Shown piece after piece: positions 19,003 to 54,040 of a stretch of 64,000 bases of DNA. Position 1 is the stretch's first letter. Each line of letters opens with the position of its first letter. This stretch comes from a bacterium. GTDB taxonomy: Bacteria; Zhuqueibacterota; Zhuqueibacteria; Residuimicrobiales; Krinioviventaceae. A program made the translations under genes and the position numbers. The stretch spans positions 6,016,001-6,080,000 of the forward strand of contig OY843751.1 of NCBI GenBank assembly GCA_963693055.1, given 5' to 3'. The notes beneath the pieces were generated by a model that saw nothing but the letters and a program-made list of their open reading frames with translations, had not been told where the DNA came from and did no database searches.

Positions 19003-19641
19003 TTAATCTTTAATAATCTCTATAAAGTATCTCTGTTCGCTCGCATCTAGTCCAGGTACAAGCATTTTGTTAATATTTTTATATTGATTTATCTCTTTCA
19101 ACTCTTTATCTATATCTCCCCCCTTGTATGTAACAAGAGAACCGCCATTTTTCAAAAATGGCATACCCCATTCACACAAACGGGATAATGAAGCTACAGC
19201 TCTTGCCATAACAACATTCACGGGTCCTGAAACAGATTCCAGAGTTAAATCCTCAACTCTTTCAGGAAATACATTCGTTTTATCTAAGCCTAATGTATCA
19301 CAAACCTGTTGTAAAAATACCGCTTTTTTCTTTCTGGATTCAACAAGGTTCATATATATATCAGATATCATTATAGCAACCGGAATACCTGGAAAACCTC
19401 CTCCAGAACCAACATCCATTATTTTTTTTGCATTTTTCACACAATCCAGAGAAAGTATCTGTAATGACTCATAAATATGCCGGGAAACCAGTTTAACCAT
19501 ATCATTTTTGGATACCAGATTCGTATGGATATTATACTCTTCTAATAATAGAGTATATTGAGTAAACTGATTAAATTGTTCTTCTGTGAGGGTAAATTGA
19601 TCTTTTAAACGTATTAATGCATCATGATTTTCTATTAACAT
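19003..19641 (-). CDS. rsmG: 16S rRNA m7G527 methyltransferase RsmG (GidB)
   Basis: DVGSGGGFPGIP, ESRKKKAVFL, ARAVA, YKG; follows mnmG. Confidence 0.95.
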   Translation of the reverse strand: MLIENHDALIRLKDQFTLTEEQFNQFTQYTLLLEEYNIHTNLVSKNDMVKLVSRHIYESLQILSLDCVKNAKKIMDVGSGGGFPGIPVAIMISDIYMNLVESRKKKAVFLQQVCDTLGLDKTNVFPERVEDLTLESVSGPVNVVMARAVASLSRLCEWGMPFLKNGGSLVTYKGGDIDKELKEINQYKNINKMLVPGLDASEQRYFIEIIKD

Positions 19642-19652
19642 ACCATCCTCAA

Positions 19653-19668
19653 TGTTCCACGTGGAACA
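19653..19668. promoter_or_regulatory. parS centromere-like site 1
   Basis: Perfect palindrome TGTTCCACGTGGAACA matching parS consensus TGTTNCACGTGNAACA. Confidence 0.9.
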
Positions 19669-19699
19669 TTCATAATTAATTCATTATATATTATAGAAA

Positions 19700-19715
19700 T
19701 GTTCCACGTGGAACA
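19700..19715. promoter_or_regulatory. parS centromere-like site 2
   Basis: Identical TGTTCCACGTGGAACA, starting 47 bp after site 1. Confidence 0.9.
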
Positions 19716-19717
19716 TT

Positions 19718-21598
19718 CTATGCTTTTTTCCATTTACTTAGGTAAACCATGAGAATTGAAATATCAGATGGTGAAACACCCAATATTCTGGAAGCTTGTC
19801 CCAATGTTTTGGGTTGTATACGTGCTAATTTTTCTCTTCCTTCTGTAGAGATGGATAAAATTGAAATATAGTCAAGACCTTCAGGTATTTTCATTTCCTC
19901 AAGGTTTTTCATTTTTTCTATCTGATTTTTTTGTCTATCCAGAAAACCTTCATATTTTGTTTCTATCTCAACCTGTTCCTGGACTTTTAGCCAGAATTTA
20001 TCAGCTTTATTTGAAAAAACCGGGTGTGAATGAATATCGACAAAATCTATAATTGATATTTCGGGTCTCTTTAAAAGACGTTCAAAAGTCTCAACTTCTT
20101 TTATTAATGAAGATCCTTTTCTTCCTAAAACTTTATTTGCATCTTCAATAGATGGGCGTTGCTTAAGTAATGTCATAGATTCTATGATTTTTTCTTTTCT
20201 TTTCAATAGATCAGAATGTGTTTCAGAATCAATCATACCAAATTTAAATCCATATTCCATTAAGCGGATATCTGCATTATCCTGTCTTAATAAAAGTCTA
20301 TATTCAGCTCTTGAAGTAAACATCCGGTAGGGTTCTTCTAATTCTTTTGTTACCAGATCATCAACAAGAACTCCCATGTAAGCTTCTGATCTTTCCAGAA
20401 TAAAAGGTTCTTCATTTCTTATTTTTAGAACAGCGTTTATACCAGCTATCATACCCTGGGCTGCAGCTTCTTCATAACCTGATGTGCCATTAATTTGTCC
20501 GGCGAAAAACAGATTTTTAACAAGTTTAGTTTCCAATGTGGGTAATAGTTGAGTGGGTGGAAAATAATCATATTCAATAGCATACCCTAAACGTGTTATG
20601 ATTGCGTTTTCCATACCAGGAATTGATTGTACACCTTTTATTTGAACATCCTCAGGAAGACTGGTTGCAAAACCATTTAAATAATATTCTGTTGTATTCC
20701 TGCCTTCAGGTTCAAGAAATATCTGATGATTAGGTTTATCGCTAAAACGATGAATTTTATCTTCAATAGACGGACAATATCTGGGACCTATTCCCTGTAT
20801 CACTCCTGTAAATAAGGGTGATCTGTCAAGTCCGGAACGTAGAATATCATGTGTTTTTTGTGTGGTTCTGGTTAAATAACAAGGGATTTGCTGTGTCTCG
20901 ATTTTATCATGTTTATGAGAAAAAGGAACAGGTATTGGGTCACCATCTTGAATTTCCATCATATTAAAATCTACGGTACGTCCATCAATTCTGGGAGGGG
21001 TACCGGTTTTCAATCTACCAATAGTAAATCCTAAATCTCTGAATTGTTGACTTAGATGATTGGAAGCAAGTTCGCCAGAACGGCCACCAGGGTAATGCGT
21101 AAGACCAATATGGATTAATCCTTTTAAGAAAGTACCGGAACAGAGAATGACAGATTTTGAATATATTTTTGTTCCTATATCTGTTACAATACCTTTAATC
21201 TCATTTTTTTCAACTATTAATCCCTGAACATCATGCTGTCTGAGAAAGAGATTGGGTTCTTTTTCCAAAGCTGCTTTCATAAACATTGTATATTCAAGGC
21301 GGTCATTCTGAGATCTAAGTGACCAAACTGCCGGACCTTTTGATTTGTTCAGTACTTTGAACTGTATTCCTGAATCGTCAGAAATTACACCTATCTCCCC
21401 ACCCATTACATCAATTTCTCTTACAAGGTGTCCCTTTGCTAATCCGCCAATAGCAGGATTACAAGACATTTGGGCTACTGTAAACAAATTCATTGTAATG
21501 AGTAATGTTTTAGAACCCATTCTTGCAGCAGCTAAAGCAGCTTCGCAACCAGCATGACCTGCGCCTATTACTAAAACATCAAAATTATCAGTATTCAT
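19718..21598 (-). CDS. mnmG: tRNA uridine modification enzyme MnmG (GidA)
   Basis: GAGHAGCEAA, MSCNPAIGG, GPRYCPSIEDK, GQINGTSGYEEAAAQG, YRMFTSRAEYRL. Confidence 0.98.
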   Translation of the reverse strand: MNTDNFDVLVIGAGHAGCEAALAAARMGSKTLLITMNLFTVAQMSCNPAIGGLAKGHLVREIDVMGGEIGVISDDSGIQFKVLNKSKGPAVWSLRSQNDRLEYTMFMKAALEKEPNLFLRQHDVQGLIVEKNEIKGIVTDIGTKIYSKSVILCSGTFLKGLIHIGLTHYPGGRSGELASNHLSQQFRDLGFTIGRLKTGTPPRIDGRTVDFNMMEIQDGDPIPVPFSHKHDKIETQQIPCYLTRTTQKTHDILRSGLDRSPLFTGVIQGIGPRYCPSIEDKIHRFSDKPNHQIFLEPEGRNTTEYYLNGFATSLPEDVQIKGVQSIPGMENAIITRLGYAIEYDYFPPTQLLPTLETKLVKNLFFAGQINGTSGYEEAAAQGMIAGINAVLKIRNEEPFILERSEAYMGVLVDDLVTKELEEPYRMFTSRAEYRLLLRQDNADIRLMEYGFKFGMIDSETHSDLLKRKEKIIESMTLLKQRPSIEDANKVLGRKGSSLIKEVETFERLLKRPEISIIDFVDIHSHPVFSNKADKFWLKVQEQVEIETKYEGFLDRQKNQIEKMKNLEEMKIPEGLDYISILSISTEGREKLARIQPKTLGQASRILGVSPSDISILMVYLSKWKKA

Positions 21599-21622
21599 CT
21601 TTTCTATTTCAATATATTAGAG

Positions 21623-22987
21623 TTATTTTCCAATACAAAATTTACCAAAGATATCATTTAAAATATCATCTGTTGTAACCGTTCCTGTGATTTCTCCTAT
21701 TTGATCAAGAGCAGCTCGAAGATCAAGTGCAATAAATTCAGGAGACAAATTTTGCTCCATTGATTGAATTGCATGATCTAGAAAAGATGCTGCTTTAACC
21801 AATGCATCTCTATGACGAACTTTGGTAATAATATTAGGTGTTTCAGGAATTTCATTTTTAGAAATAAAATTCAAGAGTTGTTTTTCTATTTCTTGTATAC
21901 CTATTCCCTGTTTAACAGAGGTAAAAATAATGGGATGAGGTTCAAATTTATTTATAATACTATTTTTATTATAATCTTGTAGAGTATCAATTTTATTAAT
22001 AACAATTATATGGTATTTATCTTTATCAAACTTAACATCTTGAGGCATTTCAAGTTTATCATTAATATCAATCAAGTGTAAAAGAATATCTGCTTGATCA
22101 ATTAACTTGTGGGTGCGTTTGACTCCCTCCTGTTCTACAACATCAGAAGATTGTCTTAAACCTGCAGTATCGGTTATTTTAAACAAGTAACCCTGAATAT
22201 TCAAAGACTCTTCAATTGAATCACGTGTAGTACCAGGAATATCGGATACAAGAGCTCGATCCTGATCTAATAACTTGTTTAATAAACTAGATTTACCAAC
22301 ATTTGGTTTTCCTGTTATTACTATATGAGCACCATCACGAATTATACGACCATAATTAAATGTTGAAATAAAGTTATTAATTATTGTAAATATATCTTTT
22401 AATTTTAAATATAATTCGTCTCTTTTGGCGAATTCTATATTTTCATCTGAAAAATCAAGCTCAAGTTCTAAAAGAGCTGTATTTTCTTTCAAAGTGTCTG
22501 CAATATAATTAAATTTTTCAGACAATTGACCAGTAAGTTCATTCATAGAAGATTCAAGTGCAGACTGGGTCTGTGCATGTATAACATCAATAATTGATTC
22601 AGCCTGAACAAGATCTATTTTTCCATTTAAAAAAGCTCGTGTAGAAAATTCACCTGGTTCTGCAAGTCTAGCTCCATGATCCAGTATTTTTTGTAATAAA
22701 GATTGAACAACCAAAGGTCCACCATGACAGCTAATTTCTACCAGATCTTCACCAGTAAAGGAATTAGGCCCCTTGAATAAAGTCACAACAACCTGATCTA
22801 GTATACTATTATTATCTTGAATTATCGAACCGAATGTAGCTCTTGCATGTGATAATTTATTATTATTTGAAACAAAGATTTTATCAACCAGATCTAAACT
22901 GTGATTACCATTTATTCTAACTATTGCTATTGCACCGGTTCCACGAGGGGTTGAAATTGCCGCTATGGTATCTTTATATGTTTTCAT
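21623..22987 (-). CDS. mnmE: tRNA modification GTPase MnmE (TrmE)
   Basis: MKTYKDTIAAISTP start at 22987; FTGEDLVEISCHGG, GKPNVGKSS, GTTRD, DTAG, NKID, C-terminal FCIGK. Confidence 0.97.
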   Translation of the reverse strand: MKTYKDTIAAISTPRGTGAIAIVRINGNHSLDLVDKIFVSNNNKLSHARATFGSIIQDNNSILDQVVVTLFKGPNSFTGEDLVEISCHGGPLVVQSLLQKILDHGARLAEPGEFSTRAFLNGKIDLVQAESIIDVIHAQTQSALESSMNELTGQLSEKFNYIADTLKENTALLELELDFSDENIEFAKRDELYLKLKDIFTIINNFISTFNYGRIIRDGAHIVITGKPNVGKSSLLNKLLDQDRALVSDIPGTTRDSIEESLNIQGYLFKITDTAGLRQSSDVVEQEGVKRTHKLIDQADILLHLIDINDKLEMPQDVKFDKDKYHIIVINKIDTLQDYNKNSIINKFEPHPIIFTSVKQGIGIQEIEKQLLNFISKNEIPETPNIITKVRHRDALVKAASFLDHAIQSMEQNLSPEFIALDLRAALDQIGEITGTVTTDDILNDIFGKFCIGK

Positions 22988-23003
22988 AGATGCTCTAAAA
23001 GTA

Positions 23004-23029
23004 AAGCCCTGCTTTTTAAGGCAGGGCTT
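23004..23029 (-). terminator. Hairpin between yidC and mnmE
   Basis: AAGCCCTGC-8 nt-GCAGGGCTT just after the yidC stop. Confidence 0.55.
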
Positions 23030-23034
23030 GGTAA

Positions 23035-24816
23035 TTAAATCTTTTTCTTTTTGGTTGTGGTTACAACAGCCTCTGCAGCCATCTTTCTGGGTACCAACCA
23101 CTTTTGTTGTATTATAGATAAAATATTAAACAATGCATAATATAAATTCAATCCCGAGGGGAATTGATTAAATAACAATGTCAGAAATATAGGCATGAAA
23201 TATACCATCATTTTTTGTTTAGGATCTGTGATAGTCATTTTTTGCTGAATTAACATTGTTGCACCCATAAATATTGGGAGAATATTAACAGAATCACCAT
23301 ACATGGGTATCATGAATGGCAAAGTAGCAATAGTATCAGGATTAGCAAGATCTTTAATCCACCAAATAAAGCCCTCTCCTCTTAATTCAATTGTGGTTCT
23401 AAAAACAATAAATAATCCCCATAATAGAGGCATTTGTAACAACATGGGTAAACAACCACCTAAAGGATTAACTTTTTCCTCTTTATAAAGATTCATGGTT
23501 GCTGCATTTAATTTTTGAGGATCGTTTTGATATTTTTCTTTCAACTCTGTAAGTTTGGGCTGTAATGCCTGCATTTTTTGCATTGACTCATAACTTTTAT
23601 GAGTTAAAGGATATACAATAATCTTGATAAGTATAGAGAATAGAATCAGTACAAATCCATAATTAGGAATAATAGTGTGAAGCTTTTTAAAACTCCATAA
23701 AATAGCAATACTAAAAGGTTGAATGATCTTGGCACCAAAATCCATAAATTTTTCTAAATGAATATTATAAGATTTTAAAATATCATTATCTAGAGGACCA
23801 AGATAAATTTTATAAGTATCTACAGTGTTTGTTTGGTTAAAGAACGGCATTACAAGAGAAACAGAAAACTTTTTCCATTTAGCTTTTGTTTTAGAATTTG
23901 GAACAGGTATTTCCTGACCGGAAATCAGTGCAGCTTCCCCTTTAACACTTTCAGGAATGATTGTAAAAGTGAAATATTTTGTTCTTACACCTAACCAATC
24001 AATTGCTGCAGATTCCTTATTCACTTTATCATTTGGTTTAAATTTTTTATTAACCTCACCGCCGGATGCATAACCAGCTTTAGCATATTGCATATCATCT
24101 TTTATACGTTCTTCCGTACTGGGCATACCATCCGGAGCTGTTAAAATATAAGCCTTACCGGCAATCATCTGGTCCATATTTACCATATGTACTTTGAGAT
24201 CCATATGATATGTATTATTATAAAATATATACTCTTTTATCAATTGTCTGGATTCACCAAAATCCAAAATAAATTTTACAGATTTTGATTCATTACCTGA
24301 TAAAGAAATAGATTTACTTCCTTCAATTCTGTAATTGATATGAGAAGTATTTAAGGTATCTCCTTCTTTGGTTGCAAAAAGAATTCCCAGGGTTTCATCT
24401 GCAAAATCAGGTAACAATTCAACATTTTCATCATTATGATTTTTAAAGGTCTTTAAAGACCAATGTGTTAAAACAGCACCTTTAGAAATTAACTGAGCAG
24501 AAAAATAGTCTGTTTCAACAGTTACTGTTTCTTCAGGGATGGTATCGTTTACAGAATAAATAGTAGGCAAAGGTTCTGTTTTTGCTTGTTCTAGATCAAT
24601 TTGAGTTTGTCTAATAATAATTTCAGTCGAATCCGGAGTAATAACAGTAGAATCAGGGACAATACCCATTTTTTGAGTTTGTCTTTGTTTCAACATTCTT
24701 TGTTTGGCTTCATACCCTTTTGGATTAAATGTTTTTTGATAAAAAGGAGTATTAACTAAAATCAGTACCATACCAATCAATAAAAATGCAAAAATTGTTT
24801 TTTTATCCATATTCAT
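23035..24816 (-). CDS. yidC: Membrane protein insertase YidC
   Basis: NYGFVLILFSILIK, SMQKMQALQPKL, NPLGGCLPMLLQMP, PSGLNLYY. Confidence 0.97.
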   Translation of the reverse strand: MNMDKKTIFAFLLIGMVLILVNTPFYQKTFNPKGYEAKQRMLKQRQTQKMGIVPDSTVITPDSTEIIIRQTQIDLEQAKTEPLPTIYSVNDTIPEETVTVETDYFSAQLISKGAVLTHWSLKTFKNHNDENVELLPDFADETLGILFATKEGDTLNTSHINYRIEGSKSISLSGNESKSVKFILDFGESRQLIKEYIFYNNTYHMDLKVHMVNMDQMIAGKAYILTAPDGMPSTEERIKDDMQYAKAGYASGGEVNKKFKPNDKVNKESAAIDWLGVRTKYFTFTIIPESVKGEAALISGQEIPVPNSKTKAKWKKFSVSLVMPFFNQTNTVDTYKIYLGPLDNDILKSYNIHLEKFMDFGAKIIQPFSIAILWSFKKLHTIIPNYGFVLILFSILIKIIVYPLTHKSYESMQKMQALQPKLTELKEKYQNDPQKLNAATMNLYKEEKVNPLGGCLPMLLQMPLLWGLFIVFRTTIELRGEGFIWWIKDLANPDTIATLPFMIPMYGDSVNILPIFMGATMLIQQKMTITDPKQKMMVYFMPIFLTLLFNQFPSGLNLYYALFNILSIIQQKWLVPRKMAAEAVVTTTKKKKI

Positions 24817-24845
24817 GAAAAAACTCGTGTCTTTTATATTATATA

Positions 24846-25076
24846 TTATGCCGGATCGTGTCCGCCCGGATTAAATGGATTACACCTTAAAATTCTCCAA
24901 ATGGATTTAATTAATCCTTTGAAAAAGCCATACTTTTCAAATGCTTGAATTGAATACGTTGAACAGGATGGATAGAATCTACAAGTATTAGGAAAAAGAG
25001 GTGATATAGCAATTTTATAAAAACGAATTAATAAAACTGATAACTTTACTATAATTGTGTTGATTGTTTTTAACAT
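24846..25076 (-). CDS. yidD: Membrane protein insertion efficiency factor YidD
   Basis: [31 protein letters not shown]. Confidence 0.95.
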
Positions 25077-25450
25077 GTTTTAATGTTGTTTTTTTCACAA
25101 TTCAAACTAGATGAATTTTGTTGGATTTTATTTAACAAGATTTTGAAATCATTTTCAAGAATATTATTTTCTATTCCAGAAACAGATAATTTAGTTACAA
25201 GTACCATATCAAAACTAAAATTAAATTCTTTATAGTTTAATCTCCACAATTCACGGGTAATACGTTTTAACCGATTTCTATGTGGTTTATTCTTGTATCC
25301 TCTTTGAGCAGCAAATCCAACATGTAAAGATTCAGATGGAACGAGATAAGCCATAAAAAATTGTGAAGAAAATTTGTCTCCCTTTTTAAACACTTTATTA
25401 AAGGATTTATTCTTTTTTAATATAATCTTTTTCGGGAGACTTTTCTTCAC
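25070..25450 (-). CDS. rnpA: Ribonuclease P protein component
   Basis: F..VFKKG and RNRLKR..RE motifs; between rpmH and yidD. Confidence 0.9.
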
Positions 25451-25464
25451 AAAATTTATTACGA

Positions 25465-25608
25465 CTATTCATCACTAACGGTTAAACGTTTTCTGCCTTT
25501 GGCTCTTCTTCTCTTCAATACCAGGCGTCCGTTTTTACTGCTCATTCTTTCCCGAAAACCATGTTTGTTAGCACGTTTTCTACGGCTCGGTTGATAAGTG
25601 CGTTTCAT
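25465..25608 (-). CDS. rpmH: 50S ribosomal protein L34
   Basis: Manual translation [47 protein letters not shown]; too short for the ORF track. Confidence 0.97.
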
Positions 25609-25765: not shown

Positions 25766-26770
25766 TTAACGAACGTATTCGTTTTTGAATTCATTCAAAG
25801 CTTTCATATAATTTGCTCTTTCAAAAGCACCAGGATCAGCAACAGCTTTTTGGCTCATACTTCCACGAAGAATATCAAGAGAAGCATATTCTTTTTCTTC
25901 GAGCCATTTTTCCATATTAGTTAATATTGTTCCTAAATAAGAAGGACCATTAACCAATAATGATGCACACATTTGAGTAACATCTGCACCTGCTGCGATC
26001 AATTTTAAAGCATCCATAGCAGTATGAACACCGGTTGTTCCTGCGAGAGAAATATCCATTTTATCTCTTAAAATAGCAATCCATCTCAATGGTACTCTAA
26101 GATCGTTTGATGAAGAAAGTACAACACCAGGTTTTACTTCAAGTTCATCAAGATCCAGATCTGGTTGATAAAAACGATTAAACATAATCAAAGCATCTGC
26201 ACCATTGTCTTGTAATTCAAGAGCAGTTCTTGGAATAGAACTGAAATTTGAACCTATTTTAACAGCAACAGGAATATTAACATTTGCTTTAACAGCTTTT
26301 AAAATAATATTGTATTGATTTTCAATCTGACGACATTCCATTCCGGAGTCGGTTGCTAAAAAGTAAATATTTAATTCAAGAGCATCTGCACCTGCATCTT
26401 GCATTTTTTTAGCATAGTCAATCCAACCACCTGTTGATACACCATTTAAACTGGCAATTACAGGAATATTGGTTGATTTTTTTACAGCCTGAATATGTTC
26501 CAGATATTCTTCAGGACCTCTGTAATAATCATCAGATTCAGGAAAATAAGATAAAGCTTCAGCAAAACTGTGAGTTCCTCTTGTCAAAAAGTAATCCATT
26601 TCACTTGCTTCAAAATTGATCTGTTCTTCAAATAAAGAGTATAAAACAATTGCAGATGCACCCGCATCTTCAAGTTTCTTTATGTTATCCAAATCTTTTG
26701 ATAGCGGAGAAGCAGATGGTACAAGAGGATTTTTTAAAGTTAATCCCATATATTTGGTTGTTAAATCCAT
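25766..26770 (-). CDS. Dihydroorotate dehydrogenase-like flavoprotein (nifJ-associated type)
   Basis: LKNPLVPSASPL, SLFEEQI, PVIASLNG, ALELN, FNRFYQPD, LRWIAIL, FERANYMK. Confidence 0.88.
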   Translation of the reverse strand: MDLTTKYMGLTLKNPLVPSASPLSKDLDNIKKLEDAGASAIVLYSLFEEQINFEASEMDYFLTRGTHSFAEALSYFPESDDYYRGPEEYLEHIQAVKKSTNIPVIASLNGVSTGGWIDYAKKMQDAGADALELNIYFLATDSGMECRQIENQYNIILKAVKANVNIPVAVKIGSNFSSIPRTALELQDNGADALIMFNRFYQPDLDLDELEVKPGVVLSSSNDLRVPLRWIAILRDKMDISLAGTTGVHTAMDALKLIAAGADVTQMCASLLVNGPSYLGTILTNMEKWLEEKEYASLDILRGSMSQKAVADPGAFERANYMKALNEFKNEYVR

Positions 26771-26845: not shown

Positions 26846-29800
26846 TTATTCTTCATTACCGTTACTATAATCCATTGCTGCCCATTCCTGGTAAATTTTA
26901 ATGCGTTTGGTAATATCTTCCTGTGCAAGACCCAACAGCATTTTTGCGCGTTCAGGTTGTGATTTGGTCAGCATCTTGAAACGATTTTCACGGTAAGCAA
27001 AATCTTCAAAAGTAATTTTCGGAGGTTTAGAATCCAATGTTAATGGATTTTTTCCTTCAGCAGCGTTTTCTGGATTGAAACGGAATAATTGATAATGACC
27101 GCTTTCAACCGCAGCTTTTTGCTCTTCCATACCTTTTGCCATATTTATACCATGAGCAATACAGTGAGAATATGCAAAAATGATACTAGGACCATCATAT
27201 GCATCAGCTTCCATCATTGCTTTAACAACCTGGAGATCATTATAACCCATTGCAACGCGTGCAACATAAATATTTCCATAAGTCATAAAAATCATACCGG
27301 CATCTTTTTTCGGTAATGGTTTACCAGCTGCTGCAAATTTTGCTACTGCTCCAAGAGGAGTTGATTTTGACATCTGGCCACCAGTATTTGAGTAAACTTC
27401 GGTATCCATAACCAAGATATTAATATTACGTCCGGAAGCCAGTACATGGTCTAAACCGCCATAACCAATATCATAGGCCCATCCGTCACCACCTAAAATC
27501 CAAACACTCTTTTTAACCAGTTTATCTGCAAGTGAAAGCAAGTGTTTAGCTTCCTGTGAAGAATTACCAGCCAGTTTATCTTTTAGTGTTTTTACACGTT
27601 CGCGTTGATCATGAATTCCGGCTTCATCAGATTGGTCAGCTTCTAATATTTCTTTTACTAATGTATCACCAATTTCTGAAGAAAGCGTTTGAACCAATTC
27701 ACGTGCAAATTCATTTTGTTTATCAAGAGTCATTCTGAAACCCATACCAAATTCGGCATTATCTTCAAATAATGAATTTGACCATGCGGGTCCGCGACCA
27801 TTTTGATCCTTGGTATAGGGGAAGGTTGGCAAGTTACCACCATAAATAGAAGAACAACCGGTAGCATTTGCAATAACACTGCGATCACCAAATAATTGTG
27901 AAAGCAGTTTTACATATGGAGTTTCACCACAGCCAGCACAGGCACCTGAATATTCAAATAATGGACGAAGTAATTGTGAACCTTTAACAGTTCCAACTTT
28001 GATTTCTCTTCTATCCGGTTCCGGAAGATCGAGGAAGAATTTATAATTATCACGTTCTGCTTCTCGAATAGGTGGTTGTGGAACCATGTTGATTGCTTTT
28101 TTACCAACTTCTTTTTTATTCTTAGCAGGACAAACTTCAACACAAAGCGTACAACCGGTACAATCTTCAGGAGCAACCTGGAGTGTAAATACCCAGTCTT
28201 CAGGAAAATCTTTACCACGTGCTTTTACAGATTTGAATGTTTCCGGAGCACCAGACAAGTTTTTAGGATCATAAACTTTGGGTCTAATTGCTGCATGAGG
28301 ACAAACCATAGCACATTTATTACATTGTATACATGTTTCCGGATCCCATTCCGGAATATCAAGTGCAATATTGCGTTTATCAAATTGAGTAGTGCCACTT
28401 TCAAAAGTACCATCTACAGGGAAAGCACTTGTTGGAACATCATCACCTTTATTAACAATAATTTTAGAAACAACATTTTTTACAAATTCAGGTGCATCAT
28501 CAGGAATCAGTTGTGGCATATCTTTATCGCTTGTTACTGAATCCGGAATTTTTACTTCATGCAGATGAGCAAGGGTTTCATCAACCGCTTTATAGTTCAT
28601 CTGAACAATTTGATCACCTTTTTTGCTATATGTTTTTTTAATAGCTCCCTTGATGTATTCAATAGCTTCGTCTTTTGGAAGAACGCCTGAAATTGCAAAG
28701 AAACAGGTCTGCATAATAGTATTGATTCTTACGCCCATACCGGTTTTTTTAGCTACATCATATGCGTCAATTACATATAATTTCATTTTTTTATCAATAA
28801 TTGTCTTCTGAATGGGTTTAGCAAGGGTATTCCAAACTTCTTCAGGGCTAGCCAAAGAGTTTAACAAGAATGTTGCACCATCGGCCGCTTTTTCAACAAC
28901 ATTGAATTTTTCAATAAAAAATTGTTGATGGCAAGCTACAAAATTAGCTTGATTAATTAAATAAGTAGAATGAATTTCTTTGGGACCAAATCTAAGGTGA
29001 GATACGGTAACTGAACCGGCTTTTTTAGAATCATATACAAAATAGCCCTGTGCAAAATTTTCAGTTTCTTCACCAATAATTTTAATAGAGTTTTTATTTG
29101 CGCCAACAGTACCATCTGAACCCAAACCATAGAAAATAGCTCTAACTACATCATCACTTTCAGTAGAGTAGTTTGGATCGTAATCGAGACTTGAATGAGT
29201 TAAATCTTCATTAATACCAACAGTAAAATGGTTTTTAGGTTTATCTTGCGCCAAATTATCGAAAATACCTTTAACCATTGCAGGAGTAAATTCTTTTGAA
29301 GAAAGACCATAACGGCCTCCTATAACCTTAGGTAAAGCAAAAGGTAATTTACCATCCTGGTTCATTTCACCAAGCACTGTAAGTACATCATTATAAAGAG
29401 GTTCACCAGTTGAACCGGGTTCCTTTGTACGATCAAGAACACCCAGTGTTTTTACAGAAGCAGGAATTGCTTTAATAAAATGTTCAGCTGAGAAAGGACG
29501 ATACAATCTTACTTTGATCATACCCACTTTTTCACCTTGAGAATTCATATATTCAACAGCTTCCTGAGCTGCTTCTGCACCTGAACCCATAAGAATGATT
29601 ACGCGTTCTGCATTGGGATCTCCAACATAATCAAAAAGATTATATTGACGACCAACAATTTTTGCAAATTTATCCATTGCAGTTTGTACTTTTTCAGGAC
29701 AAACATCATAAAAAGGATTTACAGTTTCGCGAGCCTGAAAGAAAACATCCGGATTTTGTGCAGTACCACGAATTACAGGATTATCAGGAGTTAAACCACG

Positions 29801-30415
29801 TGAACGATGTTCCAATACTTTATCATCATCGATCATTGCTTTAATATCATCAACTGTTAATTGTTCAACTTTTTGAACTTCATGAGATGATCTAAAACCA
29901 TCAAAAAAGTGAATAAAAGGAACACGTGTATGGAGAGTTGCTGCCTGCGATATTAATGCAAAATCCATAATTTCCTGAATTGAATTAGAAGCCAGCAAAG
30001 CCCAACCAGTTGAGCGAGTGGCTAAAATATCACTATGATCACCAAAAATTGAAAGCGCATGAGTAGCAACTGTACGTGCTGAAACGTGAAATACGGTTGA
30101 TGTTAATTCACCGGCAATTTTGAACATATTCGGGATCATCAGCAGCAATCCCTGAGACGCAGTAAATGTAGTGGTTAAAGCACCAGTCTGCAATGCACCA
30201 TGAACAGCACCTGAAGCACCACCTTCACTCTGCATTTCTACAACCTGGGGGACAGTACCCCAGATGTTCTTTTGCCCGGCGGCTGAAAAAGCATCAGACC
30301 ATTCACCCATCGGAGAAGATGGAGTAATTGGATATATTGCTATAACTTCATTCACCTTATGGGCCACATAGGCGGCAGCTTCGTTACCGTCTAATGTTAC
30401 CATTTTTCTTGACAT
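26846..30415 (-). CDS. nifJ: Pyruvate:ferredoxin (flavodoxin) oxidoreductase, single-chain
   Basis: YPITPS, QSEGGASG, GLGSDGTVG, CIQCNKC..CP and CTGCTLC..CP ferredoxin motifs, GACAGCGE, GDGWAYDIG; start at 30415 preceded by GGAGG. Confidence 0.97.
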   Translation of the reverse strand: MSRKMVTLDGNEAAAYVAHKVNEVIAIYPITPSSPMGEWSDAFSAAGQKNIWGTVPQVVEMQSEGGASGAVHGALQTGALTTTFTASQGLLLMIPNMFKIAGELTSTVFHVSARTVATHALSIFGDHSDILATRSTGWALLASNSIQEIMDFALISQAATLHTRVPFIHFFDGFRSSHEVQKVEQLTVDDIKAMIDDDKVLEHRSRGLTPDNPVIRGTAQNPDVFFQARETVNPFYDVCPEKVQTAMDKFAKIVGRQYNLFDYVGDPNAERVIILMGSGAEAAQEAVEYMNSQGEKVGMIKVRLYRPFSAEHFIKAIPASVKTLGVLDRTKEPGSTGEPLYNDVLTVLGEMNQDGKLPFALPKVIGGRYGLSSKEFTPAMVKGIFDNLAQDKPKNHFTVGINEDLTHSSLDYDPNYSTESDDVVRAIFYGLGSDGTVGANKNSIKIIGEETENFAQGYFVYDSKKAGSVTVSHLRFGPKEIHSTYLINQANFVACHQQFFIEKFNVVEKAADGATFLLNSLASPEEVWNTLAKPIQKTIIDKKMKLYVIDAYDVAKKTGMGVRINTIMQTCFFAISGVLPKDEAIEYIKGAIKKTYSKKGDQIVQMNYKAVDETLAHLHEVKIPDSVTSDKDMPQLIPDDAPEFVKNVVSKIIVNKGDDVPTSAFPVDGTFESGTTQFDKRNIALDIPEWDPETCIQCNKCAMVCPHAAIRPKVYDPKNLSGAPETFKSVKARGKDFPEDWVFTLQVAPEDCTGCTLCVEVCPAKNKKEVGKKAINMVPQPPIREAERDNYKFFLDLPEPDRREIKVGTVKGSQLLRPLFEYSGACAGCGETPYVKLLSQLFGDRSVIANATGCSSIYGGNLPTFPYTKDQNGRGPAWSNSLFEDNAEFGMGFRMTLDKQNEFARELVQTLSSEIGDTLVKEILEADQSDEAGIHDQRERVKTLKDKLAGNSSQEAKHLLSLADKLVKKSVWILGGDGWAYDIGYGGLDHVLASGRNINILVMDTEVYSNTGGQMSKSTPLGAVAKFAAAGKPLPKKDAGMIFMTYGNIYVARVAMGYNDLQVVKAMMEADAYDGPSIIFAYSHCIAHGINMAKGMEEQKAAVESGHYQLFRFNPENAAEGKNPLTLDSKPPKITFEDFAYRENRFKMLTKSQPERAKMLLGLAQEDITKRIKIYQEWAAMDYSNGNEE

Positions 30416-30699
30416 TACTTCCTCCATAAGATCATGAGACAATTGAAAAATTATATAAAATTTAAATAATGGTACTAATTAAAAATATATCTGAGAGAGA
30501 TAGAGGCAATTAGTACGGGTCAAATTAAACAAAATTTACATCTTTTGCAAGGAATTTAAAAGGTGGCTGGCTTATATTACATGACGATAAATTTCTATAA
30601 ATTAACGAGTTAAAAAAAATATAAATTTTCTTTTTAAGGTTTATGTATCTTTTTACTTGACTTTTTGAAAAAATTTGCTAACTTGATGTCTGTCTTTGT

Positions 30700-30772
30700 G
30701 GCGCTTTAGCTCAGTCGGTAGAGCAAGGGACTGAAAATCCCTGTGTCCCCAGTTCGATTCTGGGAGGCGCCA
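30700..30772 (+). tRNA. tRNA-Phe(GAA), CCA not encoded
   Basis: Acceptor GGCGCTT/AGGCGCC, D-arm GCTC..GAGC, anticodon arm AGGGA-CTGAAAA-TCCCT, T-arm CCCAG-TTCGATT-CTGGG. Confidence 0.97.
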
Positions 30773-30777
30773 CTTTT

Positions 30778-30808
30778 AAACCCTGTCTATTAGATAGGGT
30801 TTTTTTTT
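30778..30808 (+). terminator. Intrinsic terminator of tRNA-Phe
   Basis: AAACCCTGTCT-ATT-AGATAGGGTTT followed by a T run. Confidence 0.85.
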
Positions 30809-31184
30809 ATCCATACCTTGACTAAATAAATTTTTTTTAAATTCTATATCTTGATTAACATTCTATGTATTCTTATACATATCTTTCCTTCAAAAAGATC
30901 ATTCCATATTATATATAATATATATATATATTATAAAAGATTAGTTATAGTAGGTAACGTGGATATGTTGATAACTTTTAAAACAGGACGTATATCCTTA
31001 AAAAATAGTTGGAGAATACAATATTTATTCACATTTTGATGTGAATGGATTGTGGATCATTCTTGCTTTACTAACCAATGTGTAAAAGTATTTTTAGCTA
31101 TGTGGGTTGTTTTTGAGTAATTCACATACTATACACTTGTTTTCGGGGATAATCAAGAGTTATCCATATTTCAAGTGTTAATAA
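30807..31184. other. Probable chromosomal replication origin (oriC)
   Basis: AT-only tract 30906-30938; TAG trios 30942-30953; tandem boxes CGTGGATAT/TGTTGATAA 30958-30974; further DnaA-box-like 9-mers at 30807, 31025, 31051, 31118, 31144, 31160; gene orientation flips here. Confidence 0.75.
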
Positions 31185-31222
31185 GTTAAAATATAATTTA
31201 AATTAAAGAAAAATATATAGTT

Positions 31223-32482
31223 ATGAATAATAATTTTTACAATAAATTTGACATTGAAACCTTTGAAAAACGTGATACTGATTATCGAACACCTTTTCAA
31301 ATTGACCGTGACAGAATTATCCACAGTTTTGCTTTTAGAAGGCTGCAGGCAAAAACTCAGGTTTTCTTTTCCGGTGAATATGATTTTTACAGAACGCGTC
31401 TGACACATTCGATCGAAGTTGCTCAAATTGGTAGATCCATTTGTAATTCTTTAAAAAATTCCAGCAAATATCTTGATGATACTTTTTATATAGATGCGGA
31501 TTTGGTAGAAGCTGCGTGCCTGGCACATGATCTGGGCCATCCGCCTTTTGGCCATGCTGGTGAAAGTAAGCTGAATTTGCTTATGCGCCCTTATGGTGGC
31601 TTTGAAGGTAACGCCCAAACGTTACGGTTTTTAACTGACACTATATATTCCAGTCATGGGCACCGAAAAGGAATGAAACCAACACGAGCATTTATAGATA
31701 GTATATTAAAGTATAAAGAATTATTCAATGAAAAAAAGAAACCCAAAAACCATTTTCTTTATACGGACCAGCAGGAAATACTGGATTTTGTTTTTAATCG
31801 GTCACCATTTCCGGAAGATATTACTCCGCGAATAAATAAATTCCGAAGCATTGAATGTCAGATCATGGACTGGTCTGATGATACTTCGTATTCTTTGAAC
31901 GATATGGTTGACAGTATAAAAACCGGTTTTATTACCCTTGAAAAAATAGAAAAATGGGAAAATGATCAACAACTGTCAGATCCGGATGAAATAGAAATAG
32001 TAAAGAGTGTTAAAGAGATAATCCGTTCCGGAAGTATTGAAAGTCGATTCGGTATGAAAATCGGCGAGTTTATTAAAGCTTGTCACTTGCAGGAAAAACA
32101 AGGCTTTATGAGTGATAAAACCAATAGATATAAATTTGATCTGGTGATTGATCCCGCGGTTCAAAAAGAGTGTAATGTATATAAAAGAATTTCTAAAGAT
32201 ATTGTTTTTGATTCTCCACAGATAAGTCAGCTCGAATACAAGGGGCACTTTATGCTGGAGCGCATTTTTGAAGCGCTTTTAAATAATTATATTGAAAAGA
32301 AAACTGAATTTCTTTTGCTGCCTGATGATATGGAAAGAGTGATACATGCTGATATATTGGATAATGTGAAAAAAATTAGAATGCTTTGCGATTATATTGC
32401 GGGTATGACTGATCGATATGCTGCCAGATTTTATAAACGGTTATTTGATCCGGATTTTGGCTCGATTGTAGATTTGGTCTAG
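31223..32482 (+). CDS. dgt: Deoxyguanosinetriphosphate triphosphohydrolase (HD family dGTPase)
   Basis: DRDRIIHSFAFRRLQAKTQVF, RTRLTHSIEV, HDLGHPPFGHAGE, FEGNAQ, CDYIAGMTD. Confidence 0.93.
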   Translation: MNNNFYNKFDIETFEKRDTDYRTPFQIDRDRIIHSFAFRRLQAKTQVFFSGEYDFYRTRLTHSIEVAQIGRSICNSLKNSSKYLDDTFYIDADLVEAACLAHDLGHPPFGHAGESKLNLLMRPYGGFEGNAQTLRFLTDTIYSSHGHRKGMKPTRAFIDSILKYKELFNEKKKPKNHFLYTDQQEILDFVFNRSPFPEDITPRINKFRSIECQIMDWSDDTSYSLNDMVDSIKTGFITLEKIEKWENDQQLSDPDEIEIVKSVKEIIRSGSIESRFGMKIGEFIKACHLQEKQGFMSDKTNRYKFDLVIDPAVQKECNVYKRISKDIVFDSPQISQLEYKGHFMLERIFEALLNNYIEKKTEFLLLPDDMERVIHADILDNVKKIRMLCDYIAGMTDRYAARFYKRLFDPDFGSIVDLV

Positions 32483-52609: not shown

Positions 52610-52708
52610 GGAAGTGTAAAGATTTTTGTGTAAATCATGAACAAGGGTTCAATAACCCGTAGGGTTATTGAATTTCGATCGCTGATTGATTTGCACACAC
52701 TTTTCCAA
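52610..52708. mobile_element. Putative IS256-type MITE or orphan end
   Basis: IR-like GGAAGTGTAAAGATTTTTGTGTAAATCA; hairpin TTCAATAACCC-GTA-GGGTTATTGAA; partial opposite IR TGATTTGCACA at 52687. Confidence 0.5.
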
Positions 52709-54040
52709 GGGACTGTAAATTCGCTTGTGTTTTAAAAACAAATATTACATTTTATTAAATACAGGAGAATTTACCAATGAAACTTACACCTGAAATTATT
52801 AAACAACTTGAAAAAGATTTTGAAAATTGCAAGACAGCAGACGATCTGCTGGGCAAAAATGGTCTGGTCAAGAATTTGATTAAGGGCATATCAGACCAAA
52901 TTATGGAAGCTGAAATGACCCAGCACTTGGGCTATGAGAGACATTCTTCAGAAGGTGATAACAGTGGCAATAGTAGAAACGGTCACAGCAGCAAAACAGT
53001 GAAGACAGATTTTGGTGAAATTGACATCAAAATCCCCCGTGATCGGAATGGAGAATTTGACCCGGTACTTGTCAAAAAGCACCAGCGTGATCTGGGCAAA
53101 ATAGATGAAATTATCGTTGCCTTATATGCCAAAGGTCTGAGTACAAGAGACATCAAAGACCACCTGGAAACACTTTACGGCCTGGACGCTTCCCCAACAT
53201 TTATTTCCAATGTTACCGAACGGGTACGCGAGCTTGTCGTTGAATGGCAGTCAAGACCGTTGGATAGCGTTTATCCTATTGTTTATTTGGATGCTATCCA
53301 CTATAAGATACGTGACGAAGGGCGTATTATAAACAAGGCCGCCTATACTGTACTGGGAATCAATGGTGAAGGCTTTAAGGATTTACTTGGTATTTGGATC
53401 GACCAGTCCGAGGGCGCCAATTTCTGGCTGTCTGTTTTAACCGATATACGAAACCGTGGGGTTGAAGATATTCTGATTGCATGCGTAGATGGGCTGAAAG
53501 GCTTTCCGGATGCTATTGCCAGCATTTTTCCCGATACTGAAGTCCAGCTTTGTATCATCCATCAAATCCGTAACTCGCTTCGTTATGTTGCATCAAAACA
53601 TCAAAAAGAATTTATCAAAGATCTGAAGCTGGTTTATCAAAGCACAACTAAAGAAAACGCTGAACTGCAACTGGATCGCCTTGAACAAAAATGGGGGGTC
53701 AAATATCCCATTGTTATCAATTCCTGGAGAAAAAACTGGGACAACCTGTCCAACTATTTTAAATATCCCGAAGAAATTCGGCGAATGATCTATACCACAA
53801 ATAGTGTAGAGGCTCTGCACCGACAGCTTCGCAAAGTCACTAAAACCAAATCTCTGTTCCCCCACGATGATGCGTTGAAAAAAATGCTGTTTCTGGCCTA
53901 CAGGGATATTGCTAAAAAATGGTCGCAGCCCATCAGAAACTGGGCCTTTGTTGTTTCTCAATTTTCTATTATATTTAAAGACAGGATGAAAATCCAAATA
54001 TAGCACTACTATTCATTTACACAAAAAAGTTTACAGTCTC
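52709..54040 (+). mobile_element. IS256 family insertion sequence
   Basis: Left IR GGGACTGTAAA..TTGTGT, right IR (rc) GAGACTGTAAA..TTGTGT; no target duplication found; left end could alternatively be 52610. Confidence 0.85.
52777..54003 (+). CDS. IS256 family transposase
   Basis: HLGYERH, NSRNGH, PRDRNGEF, YLDAIHYK, DGLKGF, QLCIIHQIRNS, IYTTNSVE. Confidence 0.96.
   Translation: MKLTPEIIKQLEKDFENCKTADDLLGKNGLVKNLIKGISDQIMEAEMTQHLGYERHSSEGDNSGNSRNGHSSKTVKTDFGEIDIKIPRDRNGEFDPVLVKKHQRDLGKIDEIIVALYAKGLSTRDIKDHLETLYGLDASPTFISNVTERVRELVVEWQSRPLDSVYPIVYLDAIHYKIRDEGRIINKAAYTVLGINGEGFKDLLGIWIDQSEGANFWLSVLTDIRNRGVEDILIACVDGLKGFPDAIASIFPDTEVQLCIIHQIRNSLRYVASKHQKEFIKDLKLVYQSTTKENAELQLDRLEQKWGVKYPIVINSWRKNWDNLSNYFKYPEEIRRMIYTTNSVEALHRQLRKVTKTKSLFPHDDALKKMLFLAYRDIAKKWSQPIRNWAFVVSQFSIIFKDRMKIQI

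Follow-up and report, generated by a model that had tools for sequence, protein, structure and literature searches.

Identification of a Very Likely Chromosomal Origin of Replication 123 kb from dnaA in a Member of Family f1

Anatomy of the Locus

The window analyzed here (the whole stretch of 64,000 nucleotides) corresponds to positions 6,016,001–6,080,000 of a single 6,535,007 bp contig, which represents a complete 6.54 Mb genome (G000, a member of family f1). From left to right, it carries a gene cluster of the kind that usually flanks origins, a pyruvate:ferredoxin oxidoreductase (PFOR) gene, a tRNA-Phe gene, an intergenic region with an AT tract and a series of DnaA boxes, and a dGTP triphosphohydrolase (dGTPase) gene. 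The features are listed in window coordinates unless otherwise stated, and the identities given are over four non-congeneric relatives.

19003–25608, minus strand: rpmH-rnpA-yidD-yidC-mnmE-mnmG-rsmG, the usual origin-flanking cluster; the start of rpmH is 5.3 kb from the AT tract
19653–19668: parS-like perfect 16 bp palindrome, copy 1, between mnmG and rsmG
19700–19715: parS-like perfect 16 bp palindrome, copy 2, between mnmG and rsmG
25766–26770: DHOD-like gene that accompanies the PFOR gene
26846–30442, minus strand: PFOR, between rpmH and the putative origin
30700–30773, plus strand: tRNA-Phe(GAA), transcribed towards the AT tract
30778–30812, plus strand: intrinsic terminator-like hairpin (30778–30802) plus T tail; one found, compared with a shuffle mean of 0.2
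30906–30938: AT-only tract of 33 bp, predicted duplex-unwinding region; identity 0.74, compared with a background of 0.39
30936–30941, plus strand: in-phase extension of the trios, AAA-GAT, read from the sequence
30942–30953, plus strand (the 3'-GAT-5' strand is the plus strand): DnaA-trio array TAG-TTA-TAG-TAG; identity 0.85
30954–30957: 4 nt spacer between trios and boxes, GTAA in G000 and often GC-rich in relatives
30958–30974, minus strand: two overlapping, tandem, co-oriented DnaA boxes, predicted anchor of a basal unwinding system (BUS)
31025–31033, plus strand: distal DnaA box TTATTCACA; identity 0.86
31040–31059, minus strand: two distal boxes, at 31040 and 31051; identity 0.72 and 0.75
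31079–31087, minus strand: distal box with 1–3 mismatches in relatives; identity 0.64
31118–31126, plus strand: distal box TAATTCACA; identity 0.67
31144–31152, minus strand: candidate box CGGGGATAA, with 5–7 mismatches in 4/4 relatives
31160–31184: two distal boxes, at 31160 (plus strand) and 31176 (minus strand); identity 0.81 each
31223–32482, plus strand: dGTPase gene (TIGR01353, 328 bits, over the cut-off), transcribed away from the putative origin
52610–54040 and genome positions 6,118,656–6,120,082: inverted pair of repeat copies

An earlier note on this DNA, made from the letters alone, had named nine motifs, and direct reading of the sequence showed that all of their letters and coordinates are exact. 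It had also described minus-strand protein genes to the left of the site and mostly plus-strand genes just to the right. The long open reading frames on the left are all on the minus strand; on the right the description does not extend beyond about 36 kb, where the strands become mixed. The predicted terminator would end transcription of the tRNA approximately 95 bp before the AT tract. In an Rfam scan of 30400–31300, only the tRNA passed the gathering score (four weak matches were below threshold), and therefore no RNA gene explains the conservation of the element. A sigma-70 scan gave 7 sites, compared with 6.3 expected by chance. The dGTPase scored 371 bits against the anti-phage dGTPase family NF041026, which is below the cut-off of 400.

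The intergenic region (30774–31222) is rich in DnaA boxes. Five sites lie within one mismatch of TTATCCACA, and none of 1000 dinucleotide shuffles (mean 0.22) reached this number; 11 lie within two mismatches, again a number reached by no shuffle (mean 2.4). The tandem boxes differ from TTATCCACA by two mismatches at 30958 and one at 30966, and they contain 10 of the 11 invariant columns in an alignment of 18 sequences. No box in the G000 element is perfect; the earlier note had described the boxes as mostly degenerate. Across 42 modules, the central A of the trios is kept in 40 cases for trio 1, 36 for trio 2, and 28 for trio 3; in G000 the third trio (TTA) is the one without a central adenine. 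The AT-only tract alone is not rare, because 16 AT-only runs of at least 33 bp occur in the genome.

Over the four non-congeneric relatives that share this gene context, identity was 0.75 in the distal boxes, 0.85 in the trios, and 0.74 in the AT tract, compared with 0.39 elsewhere. Comparison with relatives also revised the set of boxes. The box reported earlier at 30807 sits in the T tail of the tRNA-Phe terminator and is altered in all three relatives that keep the same tRNA context; it is likely to be a chance match. The one reported at 31144 has an identity of 0.31 over the four relatives, under the background value, and CGGGGATAA is probably not a functional box. Three conserved boxes had been missed, at 31040 (degenerate in G000, with 1–3 mismatches in relatives), 31079, and 31176 (perfect in 3/4 relatives), and the conserved distal boxes between 31025 and 31184 thus total seven.

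Genome-Wide Searches and Chromosome Landmarks

The gene for DnaA is present in a single copy (5,922,984–5,924,333), 122.6 kb from the element, and is followed by dnaN, recF, gyrB, and gyrA. The dnaA-dnaN spacer of G000 is 94 bp long and contains no boxes. Upstream of dnaA are four perfect boxes, one tandem pair among them; nowhere else in the genome are perfect boxes so densely clustered. When we searched the genome with an HMM made from 17 dnaA-dnaN origins outside family f1, the window site matched with an E value of 4.7e-9, the profile segments having first been found via the window query or via dnaA, so that they are independent in content and partly not in selection. The next match, the pair at the dnaA promoter, had an E value of 0.35, and in an ungapped matrix search the window site scored 66.6 and the next site 15.9. 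We thus found no module of boxes and trios beside dnaA; a stronger one there would have counted against the earlier proposal of an oriC-like region uncoupled from dnaA. The joint pattern of two trios, 4 nt, and two boxes each with two mismatches or fewer occurs once in 6.54 Mb, at the window site, although this pattern was defined after the site had been seen and is not an independent test.

The model search gave one match per genome in each of the 16 of 21 genomes with a match and missed G008, G012, G015, G030, and G064. In G008 a degenerate module is present at the expected site (E = 0.27; the second of the gene contexts described below), the G030 module is cut by a contig end, and the G015 contig stops short of the expected site. 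No module was found by the model search in G012 and G064, which are 86% and 79% complete. A single-sequence DNA search across the class, which has low sensitivity, matched 24 of 125 genomes (a false match in G025, at L029, was dropped) and gave no match in families f6–f8, f10–f12, f14, and f15.

Three other groups of boxes are present in G000. Three perfect boxes (window 49635, 49803, and 49864) lie within 240 bp of each other, 19 kb from the putative origin and in the 3'-terminal part of a gene of polysaccharide lyase family 8; they may be a titration site or a chance occurrence, and the profile found no trios there. At 5,884,804–5,884,844, in intergenic DNA, two perfect boxes are inverted relative to each other at a distance of 32 bp, and a five-box cluster is in apparent coding sequence at 6,186,136–6,186,500.

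The raw cumulative GC skew of the whole chromosome has its minimum at 6,046,425 (window 30,425, approximately 0.5 kb from the element), in agreement with the earlier expectation of a minimum near 31 kb, and this position, together with the distance to dnaA, supports the view that the region is oriC-like and uncoupled from dnaA. The maximum is at 2,806,059. Using what we take to be the dif consensus, we found one dif-like match in the genome (2,806,076–2,806,103), within 50 bp of the skew maximum. The two arms to this site are in a proportion of 50.4/49.6 when measured from the module and 52.3/47.7 when measured from dnaA.

The two parS-like palindromes are the sole matches within two mismatches in the genome, and Table 1 of PMC4368675 gives the same 16-mer for parS2 and parS3 of P. 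aeruginosa. The distance from the pair to the module is 11.3 kb, and to dnaA it is 112.7 kb. Relatives carry parS-like copies at one or both ends of mnmG, and in all nine displaced genomes with both elements on one contig these sites are 9–24 kb from the module. Because parS rides with mnmG, it is not fully independent of gene order. The parB gene (5,832,579–5,833,112) is near neither the module nor dnaA; the parS-like pair is 203 kb away from it, and the putative origin 214 kb.

As raw skew is confounded by gene direction, we also used a codon-corrected skew, in which fourfold-degenerate positions were scored as leading- or lagging-like after training on far genes (80% accurate there). The signal was minus-leading to 6,046.4 kb, plus-leading to approximately 6,074 kb, minus-leading to 6,134.8 kb, and plus-leading beyond. 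Without further correction, the best single change point was at 6,134,847, 43 log-units above the module and 187 above dnaA, as would be expected if the origin were near 6,134.8 kb and the window site were an inverted fragment. We regard this as extremely unlikely. Near 6,134.8 kb there is no profile module, no top box cluster, and no intergenic tandem boxes. Moreover, the block from 6,076.8 to 6,118.6 kb has the opposite orientation in the congener G001, whose skew is monotonic on that side, and it is bounded by two inverted 1,431 bp repeats (99.6% identical) with a Mutator-family transposase. The secondary skew minimum is explained by this apparent inversion: when the block was sign-flipped or omitted, the change point moved to 6,046,427, and dnaA was then 144 log-units worse than the module. 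The replichore switch at the module, opposite the terminus, is thus seen in the codon-corrected skew only after one inversion is undone. By codon bias, 56 of the 73 genes between dnaA and the module are minus-leading, including 26 of the 32 on the plus strand, and 13 of the 15 genes to the right of the module are plus-leading. The minus-leading bias between the two loci implies that dnaA is transcribed towards the origin.

We examined raw skew on eight contigs from relatives. The minimum was within 3 kb of the module in G001 (where only 20 kb could be read on the dnaA side), G013, and G004, and 12–22 kb away in G003, G006, G007, and G014. Raw skew was uninformative in G010, where a cruder codon-corrected minimum fits the module. 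In G014 the same cruder measure gave a minimum at 274.6 kb, near dnaA (285 kb; the module is at 174 kb), on a contig with several rearrangements relative to G000.

This G014 minimum is one of the observations that would be accounted for if the true origin were the cluster of perfect boxes upstream of dnaA and the window element a relic or an auxiliary DnaA-binding site. That cluster is the densest in perfect boxes, with four where the window element has none, and its tandem pair is the second-best profile match. However, neither trios nor an AT tract adjoin the pair, and from one to four perfect boxes are also found upstream of dnaA in genomes whose module is still in the dnaA-dnaN spacer; it is established that dnaA promoters can carry autoregulatory boxes (PMC8203912). 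The skew continues minus-leading for 120 kb past dnaA, and a change point at dnaA fits much worse once the inversion is corrected. A relic, in addition, would not be expected to retain trios and nine boxes conserved across three genera. We therefore consider an origin upstream of dnaA very improbable. Judged from the sequence, the 280-base element at 30906–31184, which is present in a single copy and near parS, is very likely to be the chromosomal oriC of G000.

Coupled and Displaced Origins within the Class

In genomes outside family f1, the measured dnaA-dnaN spacers (22/22) have lengths of 313–455 bp and contain 2–8 boxes, and rpmH/rnpA are divergent upstream of dnaA wherever the locus shows them. 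G067 and G030, in which a module is visible between dnaA and dnaN, are absent from this script-measured set. Among the 19 genomes of family f1, 14 spacers are 77–178 bp long and contain no boxes, and that of G004 is 327 bp long and contains the module; those of G007, G009, and G012 are outside the measured set, and G002 has a dnaA that is not followed by dnaN. In total, the module is between dnaA and dnaN in 26 genomes, and it is displaced from this position in 15 of the 16 family f1 genomes in which it was found. As kin share states, these counts are not independent samples. Within 300 bp, displaced modules have 3–7 boxes, compared with 2–8 in coupled modules with full flanks. A module beside unrelated genes was also seen in G022, which belongs to another family and is 80% complete, and in which dnaA was not found.

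The displaced modules lie near rpmH-yidC-mnmG-parS in all nine cases in which the contigs allow this to be checked, and they fall into two gene contexts. In the first (G000, G001, G002, G005, G014, and G017, from three genera), the boxes face the dGTPase gene; G002, G005, G014, and G017 have four consecutive trios. In the second (G003, G006, G007, G009, G010, G011, G013, G016, and G018), the module is beside an rpmH-linked block, in most cases with carbamoyltransferase-SxtJ-like genes at its end. The tRNA adjoins just 4 of the 15 displaced modules, and we rejected as unsupported the idea that the origin was brought by an element integrated at tRNA-Phe.

The first context raises the question of whether the element serves the dGTPase gene, as a DnaA-controlled promoter or as a titration or reactivation site (datA- or DARS-like), and is not an origin. 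Sites of the latter kind are box clusters that lack an unwinding element, have IHF/Fis sites, and are apart from oriC. The boxes at 31160 and 31176 are 40–60 bp ahead of the dGTPase start codon, the link between module and dGTPase is kept in six genomes of three genera, and in E. coli the nrdAB operon for dNTP supply is under DnaA control (PMC8203912). Against this, the module is beside unrelated genes in the nine family f1 genomes of the second context and between dnaA and dnaN in 26 others, its trios and AT tract are present and conserved, and the profile finds no other unwinding module in G000. It is thus highly doubtful that regulation is the whole function of the element, and a secondary effect on the dGTPase gene is possible. 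Proximity to the origin, through gene dosage or DnaA control, may also bear on dGTP pools in the three genera in which the two adjoin.

An unwinding region separated from the boxes at the dnaA promoter could also be half of a long-range, two-part origin, which would require the upstream boxes, 123 kb away, to act through looping. In C. difficile, oriC1 and oriC2 are both needed for unwinding in vitro, and the ancestral gene order of the class (rpmH, boxes, dnaA, unwinding region, dnaN) is identical to that of the bipartite oriC1-dnaA-oriC2 origins of C. difficile and H. pylori (PMC7561715). Consistent with a lasting need for both parts, the upstream clusters retain 2–5 perfect boxes in displaced genomes, and the displaced modules have not gained boxes. 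In coupled relatives, as in bipartite origins, the clusters are parted by the dnaA gene alone, whereas in G000 they are 124 kb apart. Unlike the known bipartite origins, those of family f1 have clusters 2–123 kb apart and re-oriented: the distance from module to dnaA varies freely (2 kb in G006, 17 kb in G010, and 111–123 kb in G014, G001, and G000), and the relative orientation flips. Furthermore, the module carries proximal and distal boxes of its own, both of which are needed in incC of B. subtilis (PMC6669920). Dependence on the distant boxes is therefore unlikely.

We observed directly the anatomy of the element, its single copy, its conservation, its homology to origins located between dnaA and dnaN in related families, a dnaA-dnaN spacer that has been emptied, and the landmarks provided by skew, the dif-like site, and the parS-like pair. 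Taken together, they lead us to the reading, to which we assign a probability of roughly 0.9, that 30906–31184 is the single chromosomal oriC, that it is predicted to open by the basal unwinding mechanism, and that it is 123 kb from dnaA, likely since the dnaA-dnaN-recF-gyrB-gyrA operon was copied away from oriC in family f1. The origin is thereby placed for a complete genome in which the usual rule (that the origin is beside dnaA) would err by 123 kb.

Origins away from dnaA are known: such unlinked origins arose long ago in E. coli-like and some cyanobacterial genomes, and the E. coli oriC is beside gidA. Our search of the literature, which covered few subscription journals, found no description of the origin of this lineage. 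As with the gidA-linked origins described alongside cyanobacterial ones in PMC4009838, the G000 origin is near mnmG (gidA). Unlike those dnaA-distal origins, the family f1 case has surviving coupled close relatives, including one member of the family, its origin is still alignable, and the split between origin core and dnaN promoter can be read directly.

Movement of the dnaA operon fits the data better than the appearance of an origin in an unrelated place, because the element shares ancestry with the origin that related families have between dnaA and dnaN and is still in the ancestral rpmH-yidC-mnmG-parS neighborhood. The operon from dnaA to gyrA likely left the origin and took the dnaN promoter with it. 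Of 26 coupled modules, 22 have a −35-like WCTTGH within the AT tract or next to it, compared with 1 of 15 displaced ones; in coupled origins a TAWYTT-like hexamer directed towards dnaN often follows at a distance of 17 bp. A similar promoter element is present in 15 of the 16 listed post-dnaA stretches of displaced genomes (by a loose pattern, without a shuffle control). The reciprocity fits a history in which the dnaA-origin-dnaN block was duplicated and its two copies then underwent complementary losses. G004 resembles the layout from which the G000 context may have started: its order is rpmH, the DHOD-like gene, PFOR, and dnaA-origin-dnaN-recF-gyrB-gyrA, with PFOR upstream of dnaA and the origin still coupled, and 16 kb further on is tRNA-Phe, on the opposite strand. 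One inversion from this layout would orient tRNA-Phe and the module as they are in G000.

On balance, we lean towards a history in which the ancestral rpmH / dnaA-origin-dnaN block was duplicated; one copy would have retained the boxes of the dnaA promoter together with the dnaN promoter but not the origin core, the second would have retained the origin, beside rpmH-yidC-mnmG-parS, but not the genes, and later inversions would have given the two present gene contexts. The base of family f1 is not resolved in a DnaA tree of 41 rows, and in an RpoB tree of 25 rows (which left out G007, too short, as well as G012, G015, G016, and most outgroups) the coupled G004 is nested among displaced lineages without starred support (83/74, 89/86). 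A single displaced clade was not rejected (p-AU 0.09), and one displacement event or several are both compatible with these results.

Predicted Unwinding Mechanism and Trio Recognition

In B. subtilis, domain IV of DnaA binds tandem boxes, the strands are separated by ATP-DnaA that oligomerizes along the trios, and looping from distal boxes increases the local concentration of DnaA (PMC6669920, PMC8287927, and PMC10721633). The G000 element has each of the DNA parts of the BUS in the same order and polarity, and the earlier statement that its order of AT-rich tract, DnaA-trios, and tandem boxes matches that of the B. subtilis oriC is borne out. We compared it with the features set out by Pelliciari et al. 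(2021; PMC8287927). For the box pair (the better box within two mismatches of TTATCCACA and the other within four), we found one and two mismatches. For a run of three or more consecutive NAN trios no farther than 16 bp from a box, we found that TAG-TAG adjoin the boxes and are followed by TTA; the in-phase run AAA-GAT-TAG (30936–30944) starts 13 bp from the box and agrees with the three-trio rule formally, and the third trio is a borderline point. The trios are on the 3'-GAT-5' strand, the boxes are co-oriented, an AT-rich tract lies beyond, and seven conserved distal boxes are present besides the proximal pair. The element also resembles incC and the BUS (PMC6669920, PMC8287927, and PMC10721633) in that the trio-distal box of the pair is nearer the consensus and the spacer is short, and in families related to f1 the module is between dnaA and dnaN, as incC is. 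It differs from incC in being 123 kb from dnaA and the dnaA-promoter boxes, and from the BUS of B. subtilis in having two consecutive canonical trios only and no perfect box.

The step from this anatomy to unwinding activity is one that we infer by analogy with B. subtilis. DnaA would bind the tandem boxes at 30958–30974, and ATP-DnaA would polymerize leftwards on the plus-strand trios and stretch them. The opening would spread into the AT tract, where the helicase would be loaded, and the seven distal boxes (31025–31184) would supply more DnaA, possibly by looping.

The G000 DnaA (L002:10985–12334) has B. subtilis DnaA (8btg) as its best PDB match (E = 1.4e-127), and the nearest named DnaA records are from Latescibacterota (54%) and Calditrichia (48%). 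It retains Glu183, Ile190, Ile193, Asn196, Lys222, Glu223, Glu228, Arg264 (B. subtilis numbering), and the domain IV signature. In contrast to the B. subtilis protein, in which Asn187 and Arg202 contact the adenine and guanine of the trio, it has Met and Ser at these positions. Across 41 DnaA proteins of the class, Ile190 is present in 41, Ile193 and Asn196 in 40 each, and Glu183 in 39, whereas Asn187 is present in none (Met in 28, Ile in 8, Ala in 3, and Gln in 2) and neither is Arg202 (Ser in all 41). Among the 66 readable sequences from 80 loci of distant DnaA proteins, Asn187 is found in 57 and Arg or Lys at position 202 in 57.

According to PMC10721633, none of these residues is universally conserved, and we therefore do not count the absence of Asn187 and Arg202 as a failed feature of the BUS. 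The DnaA proteins of coupled origins share this absence, and so it is no argument against the window site. Judged by these alignments, the DnaA of the class may mark a variant of trio reading, and Supplementary Figure 13 of PMC10721633 may already show such variants.

A broader reading, which we offer tentatively and with more doubt than confidence, is that family f1 captures an origin in the course of being cut from the dnaA operon, through a duplication whose copies lost complementary parts, and that this may have happened more than once. Between dnaA and dnaN, all that would remain is the dnaN promoter, which formerly served as the unwinding tract as well, and the stand-alone origin would have kept boxes, trios, and AT tract and would work without the dnaA-promoter boxes. 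The DnaA of the class would read the conserved TAG trios through a pocket that has neither of the B. subtilis base-contacting residues (Met187 and Ser202 are in their place); the chemistry of recognition would differ, and the basal unwinding code would be the same.

That Asn187 and Arg202 are lost across the class while the trios are conserved provides a direct test of the generality of the base-capture model. Family f1 is also a natural experiment on whether the unwinding site needs to be close to the boxes upstream of dnaA, as it is in two-part origins. It likely preserves a record of the separation of an origin from its initiator gene, and it informs the steps by which origins unlink from dnaA.
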